A stretch of DNA of 64,000 nt from Methanoculleus sp. (GTDB lineage: Archaea; Halobacteriota; Methanomicrobia; Methanomicrobiales; Methanomicrobiaceae), in the NCBI GenBank assembly GCA_011048835.1, contig DSDF01000045.1, positions 3,565 to 67,564 of the forward strand, read 5' to 3'. Of this stretch, positions 23,976 through 32,051 are shown piece after piece (position 1 is the first letter of the stretch; every line of letters begins with the position of its first letter). Below the pieces are notes generated by a model. That model did not search any database. It was given only the letters and a program-made list of their open reading frames with translations, and was not told the origin of the DNA. A program made the position numbers and the translations under genes.

Positions 23976-24482
23976 CTACCCGAGCATCGCCTCCAGATCC
24001 CGGCACACGGCGGGCAGTATGCGGTCCCATTTCTCCCTGCCGAGGGCCCGCAGGAGGGCATCAGCCCGTGCCTTGATCGCCTCGATCTCCGCAGGCCCCC
24101 GGAGGGCGATGGTGGCGAGCAGGGTGCCGGTGGTCGTGCGAAACCGCTGCGAATACCATTCCATCCTGCCGATTTCATCGATGACGATATATGGATGCTC
24201 CGGTGCATTGAGGCGGATCGCCCCGAGAAACGCCTCGAATCCCTCCACATCGACCCCGTACTTCCCGACCCTGCAGGGGCCCCCGATGCGGGTGTGGGCG
24301 AGGAGGCCCCGGCCCCCCTCAAATCCCACGAGGGCGAATCCCGCTCTTCTTCCCTCTTCTCTGATCTCTTCGGTGTAGAACCCGCCGAAGGGCCGCCCTG
24401 CAAACGCTTCTGCAACGCGCGTGATGAGGGTCGTCTTGCCTGAACCCGGCGGTCCCGTGACGAGCAGGTTGGTGCGGGCGAC
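23976..24482 (-). CDS. THEP1/NTPase-1 family nucleoside-triphosphatase
   Basis: MVARTNLLVTGPPGSGKTTLITRVAE (Walker A) and YIVIDEIGRME (Walker B). The track ORF extends to 24542. Confidence 0.75.
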   Translation of the reverse strand, partial: VARTNLLVTGPPGSGKTTLITRVAEAFAGRPFGGFYTEEIREEGRRAGFALVGFEGGRGLLAHTRIGGPCRVGKYGVDVEGFEAFLGAIRLNAPEHPYIVIDEIGRMEWYSQRFRTTTGTLLATIALRGPAEIEAIKARADALLRALGREKWDRILPAVCRDLEAMLG

Positions 24483-24547
24483 CATGGTCTTCCGGCACGA
24501 GGGTGCGGCGCATCCATGCATAGCCTTTTTGTCCGGACGCACTCACG

Positions 24548-26815
24548 TCAGCTGCCGCCGGCAAGCAGTGCGACGATCTCCTCAAGTACCATTTCCGTCG
24601 CCTGTTTGTCCAGCGGCTGGTTGTCGTTGCCGCATTTCGGCGAATAGATGCACCCGGGGCACCCGTCGTCGCAGGGGCACTCCCGCACCACGGCGAGGGC
24701 GGCGGCGGCGATCGCCTCGAAGAGCGCGTATCCCTTCTCCGCAAGCCCGATCCCCCCTTCGACCCCGTCGTAGATCAAAATGGCGGGGGAACCGGTCGAA
24801 GGGAACCACGACGATGAAAACCCCCCGATGTCCCGCCGGTCGCAGAGCACGAGGGAAGGCATGATGCCGATGAGTGCATGCTCGGCGCCGTGGAGCCCGC
24901 CCGCGAGGTGAAGGCCGGCGCGGGCGAGACGGTCGCATACCGTTTCGGGGATGGTGCACCAGACCCCCTTCGTGGCAAACCGGAGCGGGGGGAGATCGAG
25001 CGGTTCGGTTGCGATCACCCGGTCGTACCGTTTGATGCGGTACGAAACCGTGTGCTCCACCACCTCCACGTCGCCGAACACGAGGCCGAGACCACCGGCG
25101 TCCCTGCGAAACCGCCCGGCGATGATCCTCGCCTCGATGGTGGTCAGGGGTTCGGTGGAGAGATCGGTCTCCTCCTTTCTCAGGCGTATGCGGTGGGCTT
25201 CGACATCGAGGTCGTCGACGAGGTATGTCTCTCCCTGGTGCAGGAACACGGCGCCCGGGTGCGCCTCCCGAAACGCCTGCGACCGGTCTATGGTCTCGAG
25301 CACGGATCCGTTGCACAGAACGCGGTAGGTCTCCCCGGACCCCGACCCGAGACCGACCGCTTCGGTCGCTCGTCCCCGTCCTGCATAGATCCACCGCCCC
25401 TTGCTCATCCTGAGCAGGTACTGCGCCTCGAGCGCGCCGGCGATCTCTGCCGATCCGTCCCCGAAATAGCGTGCACAGTCGGCGGCAGCAAGTGGGGCCT
25501 CGGCCGCGGCGCAGAGCAGGTGACCGGCGACGATGTAGGGGTTTGCCAAATCGATGATGGCATGCTCGCTCGCGCCTTCGAACAGCGCGCCCGGGTGGTG
25601 CATGAAGAACTGGTCGAGGGGGTTATGGGAAGCGACCAGGGCGGCGAAGGACCCGTCATTCCGCCTGCCGGCGCGCCCTGCCTGCTGCCGGGTCGCCATG
25701 ATCGATCCCGGATACCCGGCGATGATCACCGCGTCGAGTGTGCCGACATCGATTCCCACCTCAAGTGCGTTCGTCGACACGAGCCCCCGTATATGCCCGC
25801 ATTTCAGGTTCTCCTCGAGTTCCCGTCTTGTCCCGGGTAGGTACCCGGCCCGGTAGGCGGCGAGCGCCGCCCCCTCCTCTCCCGCCGTCACGAGTGCTGC
25901 GCGCGTATGGAGGGCGAGCAGTTCGGCGTGTTTTCTCGAGGTGGTGAAGCAGAGTGCCTGCAGGCCGTGCTGAATGCACCGGGCGAGAAGATCGCGGGCA
26001 GCCCGGTGAGTGGAGCCCTCTCCCGCCCCCTCTGAATACGGGTTGCAGAGGAGAAACTGCGTCTCCCCGCGGGGCGATCCGTCGTCGTCGATCACCGTCA
26101 CTGGCATCCCGCAGAGGCGGCAGGCGAATTCGCCCGGGTTTGCCACCGTGGCCGTGGAGAGCACGAACTGCGGCGTCCCGCCGTGGAGGTGGGCGATGCG
26201 CAGCAGCCGTCGCAGGAGGAACGCCGCGTGGGAACCGAACACGCCCCGGTAGCGGTGCGCCTCGTCGATGACCACGAACCGCAGGCGGGAAAAGAACGTC
26301 CGCCACCGATCGTGCCACGGGAGAATCTGGTGGAGCTCGTGGGGGTTGGAGAGCAGGATCCTCGCCCGCTCCCGTAGTGCGGGCCGCCGCGAGCGCGGCG
26401 TGTCGCCATCGTAGACCGCGCACCCCGTGGTGATGCCGGTGTACTGCTCGATCTCCCGGATCCCCTTCAGCTGGTCGTGGGCCAAAGCCTTGGTCGGGTA
26501 GAGGTAGAGTGCAGTTGCATCCGGGTGTTGTACGAGGCGTTCGAAGACGGGTAGGTTGAAGGCGAGGCTCTTTCCCGAGGCAGTTGCGGTGGTCATGATA
26601 ACGGATCTGCCCTCCCGGATCGCCTCGATGGCGGCGCACTGGTGGGAGTACAGGCGTATCCTGCGGCGGGCGAGATAGGCTTCGAGCGGTTCGGGGAGTG
26701 GCGGTACGAGCGATCCGAAGACCGCCTCCCGTGCGGGAGTCACTTCGATGTGCGCGATGCTCCGGCGCGTCTCCTGGTGCTGTTCAAGTGCGGCCAAGAG
26801 ATCAGGGATTGCCAT
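24548..26815 (-). CDS. DEAD/DEAH-box helicase with C-terminal DUF1998 zinc module (YprA/MrfA-like)
   Basis: Motif I TATASGKS, motif II VVIDEAHRY, motif VI QQAGRAGRR, and a C-terminal 4-Cys cluster CPCDDGCPGCIYSPKCGN. 755 aa. Confidence 0.85.
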   Translation of the reverse strand: MAIPDLLAALEQHQETRRSIAHIEVTPAREAVFGSLVPPLPEPLEAYLARRRIRLYSHQCAAIEAIREGRSVIMTTATASGKSLAFNLPVFERLVQHPDATALYLYPTKALAHDQLKGIREIEQYTGITTGCAVYDGDTPRSRRPALRERARILLSNPHELHQILPWHDRWRTFFSRLRFVVIDEAHRYRGVFGSHAAFLLRRLLRIAHLHGGTPQFVLSTATVANPGEFACRLCGMPVTVIDDDGSPRGETQFLLCNPYSEGAGEGSTHRAARDLLARCIQHGLQALCFTTSRKHAELLALHTRAALVTAGEEGAALAAYRAGYLPGTRRELEENLKCGHIRGLVSTNALEVGIDVGTLDAVIIAGYPGSIMATRQQAGRAGRRNDGSFAALVASHNPLDQFFMHHPGALFEGASEHAIIDLANPYIVAGHLLCAAAEAPLAAADCARYFGDGSAEIAGALEAQYLLRMSKGRWIYAGRGRATEAVGLGSGSGETYRVLCNGSVLETIDRSQAFREAHPGAVFLHQGETYLVDDLDVEAHRIRLRKEETDLSTEPLTTIEARIIAGRFRRDAGGLGLVFGDVEVVEHTVSYRIKRYDRVIATEPLDLPPLRFATKGVWCTIPETVCDRLARAGLHLAGGLHGAEHALIGIMPSLVLCDRRDIGGFSSSWFPSTGSPAILIYDGVEGGIGLAEKGYALFEAIAAAALAVVRECPCDDGCPGCIYSPKCGNDNQPLDKQATEMVLEEIVALLAGGS

Positions 26816-27884
26816 ACCATTCCTCGAAAAGGCGCTGGAAAAGGCGGGCGAGGGTGACCACGTCCTGCCGGTTGTGTTCGACGATGGGGATGAGGGGGCC
26901 CGGGTTGCCGGTCTTCAGGTATGTCGCGTAGAATTCCGGGACCATGGCGGACGGGACGTCATCCGTCCGCCGGGCACCATGCATCAGGTGCTCGAGTGTC
27001 TGCAGCCTGCAGTCCGGCAGATCGTGTTTCCACCGCCGCCGTGCAAAATGGAGCAGATCGTAGTGGGAGATGCCGGCCACGCCCGGATGGCCGTAGTAGG
27101 CCCTGCGGTCGTTAAAATAGGGCAGGTCGAAGGACCGCCCGTTGAAGGTGACGAGCGCGGTGCGGTCACGCTGGACGTGGGCGCATGTCGCGAGGATGGC
27201 GGCCTCCTCCTCGGCGATATCGCGCAGCAGGTACTGGCACACTTCGATCTCCCCACCTGCAATTCTTCCTGCACCGAACAGGATGATCGGCCGGGAAAAG
27301 AGCCCGAGGGTCTCGATATCGAAAAAGAGAAAATCCTCGATGGCATGAAAGGCCGAGAGCCCGAGGAGGCGCGGGTGCGAGGCGGGGTACCGGTGCATGA
27401 CCATGCGCCTCATCTCGCCGGGATCCGACCGGTCCAGAAGCGCGAGACCCCGGGCGTGCGCGCGATACCGGGGATGGCTGCAGAGATCGTGGAGGGTCGC
27501 ATAGCCCCTCCTCCTCAGTCTGGCTTCGATTTTCGGTCCGATTCCGCAAACGAGGGTGAGATCGGAGGAGAGCCGTTCGCGGATGCGGTGCGGGTCCGGT
27601 ACCCGCAGATCTATCTGCTCGCGGCTCGTGATTTTATAGCAAGCACCGCAGGGGGTATCGATCTCGGCGCCGCAGAACAGCTCCTCGAGCGTTCGGCCAG
27701 CATGGTGCTCGGCAAGGGTCTGTTTCAGCCGCACCGCGCGTGCATACTCCGAGGAAAACAGGCAGGAACCTGCAAAGCCGACTGCGAAAATGTTTCCGTC
27801 GCGGGCGACCTCGTATTCCTGCTGGCTGTCGATACGCTGCCGCCAGCTGTCGGCGACGGTGGTGACAAGGGGCCCCGTTCCCAT
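26802..27884 (-). CDS. RNase H-like (DEDDh) exonuclease with N-terminal helix-hairpin-helix (YprB/MrfB-like)
   Basis: FFDIETLGL (DxE), FNGRSFDLPY and VEHNRQDV (H..D), with an upstream HhH LVCGIGPKIEARLRRRGYATLHDL. The start is placed at the ATG at 27884, because the longer track ORF overlaps the divergent gene at 28030. The stop overlaps the helicase start by 14 nt. Confidence 0.75.
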   Translation of the reverse strand: MGTGPLVTTVADSWRQRIDSQQEYEVARDGNIFAVGFAGSCLFSSEYARAVRLKQTLAEHHAGRTLEELFCGAEIDTPCGACYKITSREQIDLRVPDPHRIRERLSSDLTLVCGIGPKIEARLRRRGYATLHDLCSHPRYRAHARGLALLDRSDPGEMRRMVMHRYPASHPRLLGLSAFHAIEDFLFFDIETLGLFSRPIILFGAGRIAGGEIEVCQYLLRDIAEEEAAILATCAHVQRDRTALVTFNGRSFDLPYFNDRRAYYGHPGVAGISHYDLLHFARRRWKHDLPDCRLQTLEHLMHGARRTDDVPSAMVPEFYATYLKTGNPGPLIPIVEHNRQDVVTLARLFQRLFEEWYGNP

Positions 27885-28029
27885 GGCTCTGCAAGGAGAG
27901 TTCTGCGGGAGTATGCACAACAATCGTGGGCGTGTGGTGTGAAAGTGTTCCCTCCTGCGTTCGGCGGAAAGACGCGGAAATATCGGAAAAACCATATCCG
28001 CCGAAAAAGACCTGAAAGGTACAGGAACA

Positions 28030-29145
28030 ATGGGAATGAAATCACACACCTGCATCGCAGTATGCATCCTATTTCTGGCGCTGACGCTGGGGGGAGGCTG
28101 CCTCGAGGCCGTGCTCGGTTCCTGCCCGCCGGCCGAGTACCCGCGCATCGTTCCTGCAGATCTGGCTGGCCCCATGCAGCCTGCGACCTTTTCGTACCGG
28201 TTTATGAACGATGCGGTAACCGTCACCGTCCCTCTCGACGCAGGCATCTACGAGGGCGCTCGAAACGCGGATAAGTTTGCGTATCTCTTCGAGGATCTGG
28301 AGGAGGAGGAATGGCTTGCCGGGTACTACCGGGCGTTTGTATTTGATGAACATCTCGACGGCCTGTTTGCCGGTCTGCACGACGCCTTCGCATCCGTCCG
28401 GACCACGATGGACCTTGACGATGACGAATGTCTTGAACTCATGGCGGTGTTCGTCCAGTCTCTCCCCTACGAGAGCGATGATGCAGCCGGAGAACCCCGG
28501 TTCCCCATCGAGACGATCGCGGACGGGAGGGGCGACTGCGATGACAAAAGCATTCTCCTTGCCGGCCTGCTCGCCCGGGAAGGCTACGACGTCGTGCTGC
28601 TCTTTTTTAAGCCCGAACAGCACATGGCAGTCGGCGTGCGGGCCGACGGGTGCTCGTACGGCACGACGGGCTATGCGTTTATCGAGACCACCAATGTCAG
28701 TTTTGTGGGCGTGGCTCCTGCCGCGCTGGAGGACGGGCTGGCGATCAGCTCCGATCCGGTCGTGATCCGGATCGGGGAAGGGATGAAGGGGTACGGGAGG
28801 TGTGACCAGACGGCGTATATCGACGCTGCGCTGCATGACGTACTGGACCGGATTGCATCCGGAGAACCGGACCTCCGGCGTGCACACGATGACCTGGCGG
28901 CGGCGTATGCGTCCCTCGAGGAGCTAAGAACGAGAATGGATACGCTTGCGGCGTCGGGGAGAATCGGGGAGTACAACAGTCTCGTCCCTGACTACAACCG
29001 GCAGGTGCAGGAGTATAATGAACAGCTGGAGGAGGTGTCCGGGCGCCAGAATGAATACAATCGAACCATCGAGGTGTACAACTACATCATCACCCACCCG
29101 CACGACCGTACGGGGACCTATGCGTGGCTGAGGGAGCATGCCTGA
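28030..29145 (+). CDS. Putative lipoprotein with a transglutaminase-like cysteine-protease core and a C-terminal coiled-coil/xYN repeat tail
   Basis: A signal peptide with lipobox-like LALTLGGGC; GRGDCDDKSILLAGLLAREGYDVVLL...HMAV...ETT (a Cys-His-Asp/Glu-type core pattern); and a C-terminal EYN/DYN/EYN/EYN/VYN periodic motif. Confidence 0.55.
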   Translation: MGMKSHTCIAVCILFLALTLGGGCLEAVLGSCPPAEYPRIVPADLAGPMQPATFSYRFMNDAVTVTVPLDAGIYEGARNADKFAYLFEDLEEEEWLAGYYRAFVFDEHLDGLFAGLHDAFASVRTTMDLDDDECLELMAVFVQSLPYESDDAAGEPRFPIETIADGRGDCDDKSILLAGLLAREGYDVVLLFFKPEQHMAVGVRADGCSYGTTGYAFIETTNVSFVGVAPAALEDGLAISSDPVVIRIGEGMKGYGRCDQTAYIDAALHDVLDRIASGEPDLRRAHDDLAAAYASLEELRTRMDTLAASGRIGEYNSLVPDYNRQVQEYNEQLEEVSGRQNEYNRTIEVYNYIITHPHDRTGTYAWLREHA

Positions 29146-31400: not shown

Positions 31401-32051
31401 ATGGATGAGGAAGAGTATACCCGGGCCCGCCGGAGGATGGTGGAGCGCCAGATCGAGGCGCGCGGGATCAGTGATCCGCGTATCCTGAAGGCGATGGAAG
31501 AGATCCCCCGTCATCTCTTTGTGCCGGAGACCTACCGTTCCGCAGCCTACGATGACGGCCCCCTCCCCATCGGGCACGGGCAGACCATCTCTCAGCCCTA
31601 TATAGTCGCCCTGATGACCGATATGCTGGATATCGGTCCGGATGACCGGGTGCTGGAGATCGGGGCGGGGAGCGGCTACCAGGCGGCAATTCTCGGGCGG
31701 CTTGCCCGGGAGGTGGTCACCGTCGAGCGCCTCCCCGACATCGCCGCCCTCGCGCGCCGGAACCTCGGGACGGTCGGGGTGTCGAATGTCATGGTCGTGG
31801 AGGGAAACGGCACGCTCGGGTATGCGGATCGTGCGCCCTACCAGGGGATTATCGTCACCGCGGCAGCGCCCGATGTGCCCCGGCCGCTCATCGACCAGCT
31901 GGCCGAAGGGGGGCGTCTCGTCGCTCCCGTGGGCAGCAAAGGACTGCAGGTGCTGGAAAAAGTGGTGAAAAAAGATGGCCGGATTATCAGGACATCCCAC
32001 GGCGGGGTGATGTTCGTCCCCCTCATCGGTGACCATGGGTGGGAGGAGTGA
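31401..32051 (+). CDS. pcm: Protein-L-isoaspartate O-methyltransferase
   Basis: GHGQTISQPYIVALM and VLEIGAGSGYQAAIL (SAM motif I). Confidence 0.9.
   Translation: MDEEEYTRARRRMVERQIEARGISDPRILKAMEEIPRHLFVPETYRSAAYDDGPLPIGHGQTISQPYIVALMTDMLDIGPDDRVLEIGAGSGYQAAILGRLAREVVTVERLPDIAALARRNLGTVGVSNVMVVEGNGTLGYADRAPYQGIIVTAAAPDVPRPLIDQLAEGGRLVAPVGSKGLQVLEKVVKKDGRIIRTSHGGVMFVPLIGDHGWEE

Follow-up and report, generated by a model that had tools for sequence, protein, structure and literature searches.

We report the analysis of a locus in a 64,000-nucleotide stretch of DNA from Methanoculleus sp. (GenBank assembly GCA_011048835.1, contig DSDF01000045.1, positions 3,565 to 67,564 of the forward strand; hereafter the window), at which three genes encode a predicted DEDDh exonuclease, a helicase of superfamily 2 (SF2) and a P-loop NTPase of the THEP1 family. 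The original prediction for this DNA described the three genes as co-directional and tightly packed, likened the first two products to MrfB and MrfA and regarded the third gene as appended to them to form a trio. We compare the locus throughout with the MrfA (YprA)-MrfB (YprB) pair of Bacillus subtilis, the mitomycin repair factors (Burby & Simmons 2019), for which structures are available in the PDB (6znp for MrfA, Roske et al. 2021; 8un9 for MrfB, Manthei et al. 2024).

The listing of open reading frames (ORFs) of the window bears out the predicted layout, with all three genes on the minus strand. The first in the direction of reading is an mrfB-like gene for a predicted DEDDh 3'-5' exonuclease of 360 amino acids (26802..27884, minus strand); its ORF is open over 26802-28247 and the ATG at 27884, which the original prediction had also assumed, was chosen as the start because the homologues at 19 other loci share it in an alignment (A1). 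The second is an mrfA/yprA-like gene for an SF2 DEAH DNA helicase of 755 amino acids (24548..26815, minus strand), the ATG of which lies upstream of the stop codon of the exonuclease to give the 14-nucleotide overlap that had been noted before (26802..26815, minus strand). Overlap or abutment at this junction, judged by the ends of high-scoring segment pairs (HSPs), recurs in 20 related loci, and the overlap in the window should couple the translation of the two genes.

The third gene, for the NTPase, occupies an ORF at 23976-24542 (minus strand). The original prediction had the NTPase frame open 5 nucleotides after the helicase stop, and a GTG at 24542 does stand there; the probable start, however, lies further downstream. 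Neither this GTG nor the next in-frame ATG, at residue 8, is kept in a 93%-identical relative (L105), where the latter codon reads ATA, whereas an ATG at 24485, just before the strand leading into the P-loop, is kept in the window, in L105 and in L106. The gene therefore probably starts at 24485 and encodes 169 amino acids (23976..24485, minus strand), leaving a spacer of 62 nucleotides behind the helicase stop (24486..24547, minus strand). Since the spacer holds no run of five or more T that could serve as an archaeal terminator, THEP1 may in this genus be partly read through from the mrfB-mrfA operon. The spacer also contains an A-rich element, ACAAAAAGGCTAT (24520-24532), kept in the same three genomes, which may be a weak internal promoter for THEP1, resembling a B recognition element (BRE) and TATA box.

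Identity of the helicase and the exonuclease

All of the features predicted for the helicase are found in its translation: motif I (ATASGKS) at residue 77, motif II (DEAH) at residue 184, motif VI (QQAGRAGR) at residue 377 and, at residue 713, the four-cysteine zinc-binding cluster CPCDDGCPGCIYSPKC. This cluster belongs to an MZB/DUF1998 zinc-binding domain at residues 644-723 (24647..24886, minus strand), matched by PF09369 over the full model with an E-value of 1.3e-22, and the remaining Pfam domains are DEAD (PF00270, 6e-32), Helicase_C (PF00271, 6e-14) and WHD_HRQ1 (6e-09). The best relative in the PDB is YprA/MrfA of B. subtilis (6znp, E 3.3e-133), with residues 26-724 aligned to 28-731 of the chain. 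The two proteins are of the same length to within a few residues (755 amino acids against 751 in the chain) and colinear, sharing the domain order RecA1, RecA2, winged helix, oligonucleotide-binding (OB) fold/connector and four-cysteine MZB, and the helicase of the window has neither large insertions nor a fused nuclease. Because this match far exceeds those to the Lhr-type helicases of the PDB (8e-20) and to the Hel308 model (5e-6), the predicted affinity to YprA rather than to Hel308 or Lhr holds, and by sequence the helicase is of the YprA/MrfA type and of its repair branch. The closest helicase loci, in metagenome-assembled genomes (MAGs) labelled Methanomicrobiaceae, encode helicases that are 93% and 82% identical to it.

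The NCBIfam model TIGR03817, a hypothetical equivalog for the helicase/secretion-neighbourhood DEAH-box helicase that covers an SftH-like actinobacterial group, aligns with practically the full length of the helicase (model positions 3-739 of 742) at 758.5 bits and its cut-off of 874 bits is not reached, which makes the helicase, by this measure, a relative of the equivalog and not a member of it. SftH of Mycobacterium smegmatis and the TIGR03817 proteins are of the same helicase family, DUF1998 included. The TIGR03817 group, however, has a Tad-like secretion neighbourhood that the window locus lacks. SftH-type helicases are of the 'YprA only' kind. No exonuclease accompanies them, and most Solirubrobacterales and Chloroflexota loci that we examined are alike in this, whereas the helicase of the window has a partner.

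That partner is, by sequence and by its structural model, an exonuclease of the MrfB type, with predicted DEDDh activity. It matches RNase_H_2 (PF13482) at 9.6e-35, and its sole sequence match in the PDB is the catalytic core of MrfB (8un9, 3e-23), the catalytic domain at residues 183-351 (26832..27338, minus strand) aligning to residues 69-240 of 8un9_A. The motifs DIET (residue 189), NGRSFD (248) and HNRQD (337) align with those of MrfB and supply all five catalytic residues, D189, E191, D253, H337 and D341, none of which varies among 20 homologues. The AlphaFold2 model, for which these 20 homologues served as input and which has a predicted local distance difference test (pLDDT) score of 84.9, also leads to MrfB: the first-ranked Foldseek match is 8un9_A (E 5.1e-09, template modelling score 0.63, normalised to the target), and the other fold matches, DnaQ, PolB exonuclease and TREX, score 1e-4 or weaker. 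The MrfB/YprB-like nature proposed for the protein is thus recovered from sequence and fold alike.

Outside the catalytic domain the two exonucleases differ. In MrfB of B. subtilis the exonuclease core is preceded by an unstructured N-terminus and followed by a tetratricopeptide repeat (TPR) region at the C-terminus (PMC11194089). The protein of the window has no TPR that Pfam detects and stops 9 residues past the exonuclease-domain alignment; in the model the exonuclease domain is closed by a long helix (329-357) with which the chain ends. A homologue of MrfB in P. aeruginosa also lacks the TPR, which is therefore not universal in the family (Burby and Simmons, 10.1101/426304). The window exonuclease instead has about 80 extra residues at its N-terminus, with a helix-hairpin-helix (HhH) motif (L-x-L-x2-GIG ... 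RGY-x-T/S-x3-L) at residues ~109-135 (27480..27560, minus strand), in which L111, G114, G116, G127 and L134 are invariant in alignment A1 and I115 nearly so. The HhH region is modelled as helical at a pLDDT above 90, within an N-terminal part (residues ~45-180) modelled at 79-96; Pfam gives no HhH match at E<=0.01 and the call rests on the motif and the model.

Conservation of the exonuclease-helicase pair

We sampled 121 genomes of the Methanomicrobiales (the class sample) and 161 genomes of the phylum (the phylum sample), one archaeal phylum being covered, and counted as a pair any PF13482 exonuclease lying no more than 4 kb upstream of, and on the same strand as, an MrfA-like MZB helicase. 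Such a helicase is present in 93 of the Methanomicrobiales genomes and has the exonuclease upstream in 89 of them and downstream in none. The genes are adjacent and co-directional, as in B. subtilis, and their order relative to mrfA-mrfB is reversed, as the original prediction had stated, with the exonuclease first and, in the window, overlapping the helicase. Elsewhere in the phylum 29 of 70 MrfA-like matches have the exonuclease upstream and the remainder are 'YprA only'. In a tree of helicase sequences extracted as tblastn HSPs, the Methanomicrobiales form one clade with 100/100 support, the backbone of the tree being unresolved. The genes around the locus are of the housekeeping kind, namely pcm, sufCB, a lipoprotein gene, a CcdA-type fusion and an otsA-otsB fusion, and of these the lipoprotein gene, pcm and otsAB recur in synteny with the block in several families.

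Helicases with a DUF1998 module are also found in systems that act against viruses and plasmids (DISARM, Druantia, Dpd, ARMADA), and the YprA family is central to several of these (PMC12458937), so that a defence function for the pair, at which the original prediction hinted, has to be considered. The PADLOC models BrxHI, DruE, DrmA and DpdJ/F do match the helicase, with E-values from 1e-38 to 1e-16, but the matches are confined to the shared SF2 core (residues 55-388, for example) of much longer models, while the helicase itself has the length and colinearity of repair-type MrfA. Within about 8 kb on either side we found none of the partners of such systems: no DrmB, DrmC or methyltransferase, no DruH, no Dpd cluster and no BrxHII-like gene with a PglX-like one. 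The gene is, moreover, a single-copy one that most genomes of the order possess, is vertically inherited and is held in a conserved housekeeping position, where defence islands behave otherwise, and a separate class of MZB helicases resembling the defence type is present in genomes of the same order. We consider a role in defence highly improbable and the hint is not sustained. The separate helicases, 1600-1850 amino acids long and Druantia/ARMADA-like in appearance, are encoded in many Methanomicrobiales genomes of the class sample (G014, G048, G107, G109, G052 and G056 among them); the genome of the window has none.

Two departures from the usual arrangement were met with. A contig of a Syntrophaceae MAG (L004:4842-8232, JBDKTK010000178.1), which is bacterial, carries an exonuclease-then-helicase pair of the Methanomicrobiales type, flanked by genes for a PAS-GGDEF diguanylate cyclase and CorA. 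Its helicase is 49% identical to that of the window and is placed within the archaeal clade at a support of 100/100; the pair is a candidate for inter-domain transfer between syntrophic partners, or else for a binning or assembly chimera. Conversely, some genomes in which the search turned up no MrfA-like MZB helicase have an orphan mrfB-like exonuclease: G047 (L090:3332-4378), where an archaemetzincin gene occupies the helicase position, and other genomes of genus g10 (G001, G004, G011, G018, G022, G024, G062, G101, G105 and G112); the orphan enzyme may work alone or with another helicase.

Does THEP1 belong with the pair?

The third gene is, as predicted, a THEP1-family NTPase. The protein is small, with intact Walker A (GPPGSGKT) and Walker B (IVIDEIG) motifs, and it matches PF03266 at 2e-31, its 109.5 bits being well above the gathering threshold of 23.9; in the PDB it resembles human NTPCR (2i3b, 3.5e-23) and AQ_1292 of Aquifex aeolicus (1ye8, 1.2e-16). 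The NCBIfam model NF010248 gives 115 bits and its curated cut-off of 156 is not reached, and the protein may be regarded as a somewhat divergent or shortened member of the family. Relatives score 130-150 bits against PF03266 where the window protein scores 109 and covers model positions 1-156 of 168, and in its alignment to human NTPCR small deletions follow Walker B. The genome, which is 96% complete, holds no other full-length THEP1. To our knowledge this universally conserved family has no known function in any organism, its human member NTPCR included, and nothing therefore ties it to DNA repair.

Searches for THEP1, in which 20-26 of the roughly 60 first-look candidates of each genome were scored, found the gene in 62 of the 121 Methanomicrobiales genomes and, together with the helicase, in 45. 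It lies directly downstream of the helicase in five of these 45, with one further case 6.7 kb downstream. The five are the genome of the window, a second of its genus, a third from another genus of the family and two that represent a further family each (G000/G040/G110, G012 and G008, respectively, by label), making three families. Among the 15 genomes of the phylum sample that have both genes and lie outside the Methanomicrobiales there is no adjacency, the nearest case being G142, where a distant, 29%-identical MZB helicase has THEP1 at 2.5 kb on its downstream side. For the presence of helicase and THEP1 in the same genome the class sample gives an odds ratio of 0.61 (p 0.29) and the phylum sample one of 0.21 (p 4e-6); the two profiles are thus independent or negatively associated, and THEP1 does not accompany the helicase. 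When the GTDB species set was searched from the side of THEP1, the 80 closest loci were mostly bacterial, and three of them, all from Methanomicrobiales, had the helicase upstream; no bacterial locus among the 80 had THEP1 directly behind the helicase. The neighbourhood comparison proposed with the original prediction therefore divides: the exonuclease co-occurs with the helicase and THEP1 does not, and the trio does not stand as a unit.

The junctions in the relatives are varied. The start of THEP1 overlaps or abuts the helicase stop in G008; the helicase is followed by a gap of ~380 nucleotides in G012 and, in G110, by a gap of 305 nucleotides that holds a small hydrophobic ORF; and at locus L107 an archaemetzincin gene (amzA) sits between the two. 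In G015 and G049 amzA follows the helicase and THEP1 is absent, and in G023 amzA and THEP1 stand as a pair 6.7 kb from the helicase. Where the helicase is missing, in G047, the exonuclease, amzA, THEP1 and otsAB follow one another in that order, and where both repair genes are missing, in G031, amzA and THEP1 are still found beside the conserved lipoprotein gene. THEP1 thus stays put with or without the helicase, the opposite of what is expected of a selected three-gene operon, and the arrangement is that of an old core-genome synteny being reshuffled. The block, pcm, sufCB, lipoprotein, mrfB, mrfA, (amzA), THEP1, ccdA fusion and otsAB, is old, conserved and eroding, and its THEP1 is the cell's single general THEP1 gene, most likely no dedicated subunit of a repair machine.

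We conclude, with a probability of roughly 0.7 (0.72 by our own estimate), that the locus is a vertically inherited, two-gene repair operon of the MrfAB (YprAB) kind, exonuclease followed by helicase, and that THEP1 is a neighbour by synteny and not a dedicated subunit. Several points tell against this conclusion. The adjacency of THEP1 is found in three families and, with the helicase backbone as it is, this points to an old arrangement, long kept in some lineages; the junction in G008 looks operonic; and a Poribacteria contig (L079) has a tight, co-directional helicase-pcm-THEP1 arrangement that would not be expected by chance. A few copies of THEP1 could have been missed, given the partial scoring of candidates. 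On the side of function, the substrate of the archaeal pair, be it mitomycin-type adducts or something other, is extrapolated by analogy, and only close relatives complement one another, the function of distant homologues having been suggested to have diverged (Burby and Simmons, 10.1101/426304).

The points concerning THEP1 are also those that favour a rival explanation, in which the three genes are one module, with THEP1, a small and nonspecific NTPase, acting in this lineage as a co-transcribed accessory such as a loader, a sensor of lesions or nucleotides, or a regulator. The co-directional genes and the short spacer free of a T-tract terminator would fit such a module, as would the three families, the junction in G008, the Poribacteria contig and the location of THEP1 in G142. 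Against it stand the rarity of the adjacency within the order and its absence from the genomes with both genes outside it, the lack of a positive association between the phyletic profiles, the location of what is a sole genomic copy elsewhere in most genomes that have THEP1, the insertion of archaemetzincin or of a small membrane ORF at the junction in relatives, and the persistence of THEP1 in place after the loss of the helicase (G047) or of both repair genes (G031). The upstream in-frame starts of THEP1 are not kept, either, and the conserved A-rich element suggests a promoter of its own. Such a module is, in our judgement, improbable. A narrower version, in which some of the Methanomicrobiales, and perhaps a lineage of Poribacteria on its own account, recruited THEP1 as an accessory NTPase of MrfB-MrfA, we hold to be quite improbable; were it true, the eroded adjacency would be the trace of a functional link and the first cellular context for the THEP1/NTPCR family. 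A THEP1 that worked with the helicase would likewise be the first functional clue to a universally conserved NTPase.

The Poribacteria contig (L079:2-2880, Candidatus Poribacteria WJIO01000427.1) carries an MrfA-like helicase, a pcm gene whose start abuts the helicase stop and, 88 nucleotides on, THEP1; it is the only bacterial case of proximity between helicase and THEP1 that was found. In the window pcm lies at 31401-32051 (plus strand), 3.5 kb from the operon. Prompted by the Poribacteria contig, we asked whether pcm might be the partner of the helicase or of THEP1 and rejected this as not general, the gene being near the block only through the local synteny of the Methanomicrobiales; the search for it also gave, at two loci of a single Spirochaetota genome, a weak match to a methyltransferase next to THEP1. 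Archaemetzincin was likewise tried as the 'real' partner of THEP1. A gene with the motif HELGHTxGLxHC stands directly upstream of THEP1 in four loci (L107:5416-6510, L090:4438-5594, L091:5154-6223 and L089:3308-4362) and none is beside THEP1 in L103, L104 or the window, and this candidate was also set aside. In L107 the archaemetzincin frame enters THEP1 without a stop, and this may be either a fusion of AmzA with THEP1 or an indel error, the MAG being a long-read one. The ORF at the G110 junction (L085:5769-6073), from another genus of the window's family, encodes a very hydrophobic protein of ~80 amino acids (MMVIGLILGIIFLLLMILGG...).

Predicted role of the pair and its surroundings

The steps by which the pair might act can be proposed from work on MrfA and MrfB of B. 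subtilis and SftH of M. smegmatis. By analogy, the helicase would translocate 3' to 5' on single-stranded DNA by a 'skipping-rope' mechanism, its canopy domains (OB, connector and zinc-binding MZB) gripping the strand, and would peel a damaged strand away from a nick or gap. The freed 3' end would then be passed to the Mg2+-dependent DEDDh exonuclease, which would degrade the strand, and the outcome would be an excision of bulky adducts that is independent of UvrABC. The conserved HhH motif at the N-terminus of the exonuclease probably provides sequence-independent DNA binding or scaffolding, in place of the bacterial TPR. The literature that we searched holds no experimental work on an archaeal pair.

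The same biochemical mechanism is shared by an explanation that differs from the repair operon in its physiological substrate only, in which the pair is a general machine for processing 3' ends and forks (stalled forks, recombination intermediates or R-loops) and the link to mitomycin is particular to Bacillus. The limits of cross-complementation noted above, with the diverged uses that those authors propose for distant homologues, are in favour of this, and so is the exchange of TPR for HhH in the accessory domain of the archaeal exonuclease. MrfA, further, has no specificity for mitomycin-damaged DNA (PMC7797055), and strict anaerobes such as methanogens would be unlikely to meet mitomycin often. 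Nothing seen here speaks directly against this alternative, although mitomycin C is also countered by Hrq1 of yeast and by homologues in plants and fungi, which points to a broadly conserved class of lesion (PMC7797055). General fork processing strikes us as unlikely, if quite conceivable.

For a repair operon of the MrfAB kind, the relation to published work is close. Homologues of MrfA have been noted in archaea (Roske et al., PMC7797055), and the MrfAB/YprAB repair branch has been distinguished from the defence branches of the YprA family (Bell et al. 2025 preprint, PMC12458937). The helicase of the window resembles the 'MrfAB/YprAB' and 'YprA only' repair branch of that study in having none of the insertions or nuclease fusions of the defence branches, but the nucleases described there are fused to the C-terminus of the helicase or encoded downstream of it, whereas in the window, and in the Halobacteriota that we sampled, the nuclease is upstream. 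Neither 'THEP1' nor 'NTPase' occurs in the text of Bell et al., and none of the top-ranked papers in a search on THEP1 and helicases links the two. The branch, then, is already described; the upstream position of the nuclease and the HhH in place of TPR are lineage-typical features on which those papers do not dwell. The host is a further difference from B. subtilis, being an archaeon of the Methanomicrobiaceae, and the pair of the window is known from sequence alone.

The helicase-exonuclease route of the MrfAB type would be a common component of genome maintenance among methanogens and related organisms, passed on vertically, the pair being present in about three quarters of the Methanomicrobiales sampled. 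Its fixed layout, with the exonuclease first, predicted translational coupling and HhH for TPR, is useful for annotation, and the pair is a reasonable target for a first genetic test of the pathway in archaea.

Upstream of mrfB, a divergent intergenic region (27885..28029) presumably contains the promoters of mrfB and of the gene for a 371-amino acid lipoprotein (28030..29145, plus strand), which we treat as context and not as part of the system. The protein has no Pfam or NCBIfam match; it has an N-terminal hydrophobic, lipobox-like segment and a GRGDCDDKS motif, the latter of which suggests a transglutaminase- or papain-like core. By tblastn its gene adjoins that of the exonuclease in at least 11 loci from several Methanomicrobiales families (L085, L088-L091, L095, L096, L098-L100 and L107).

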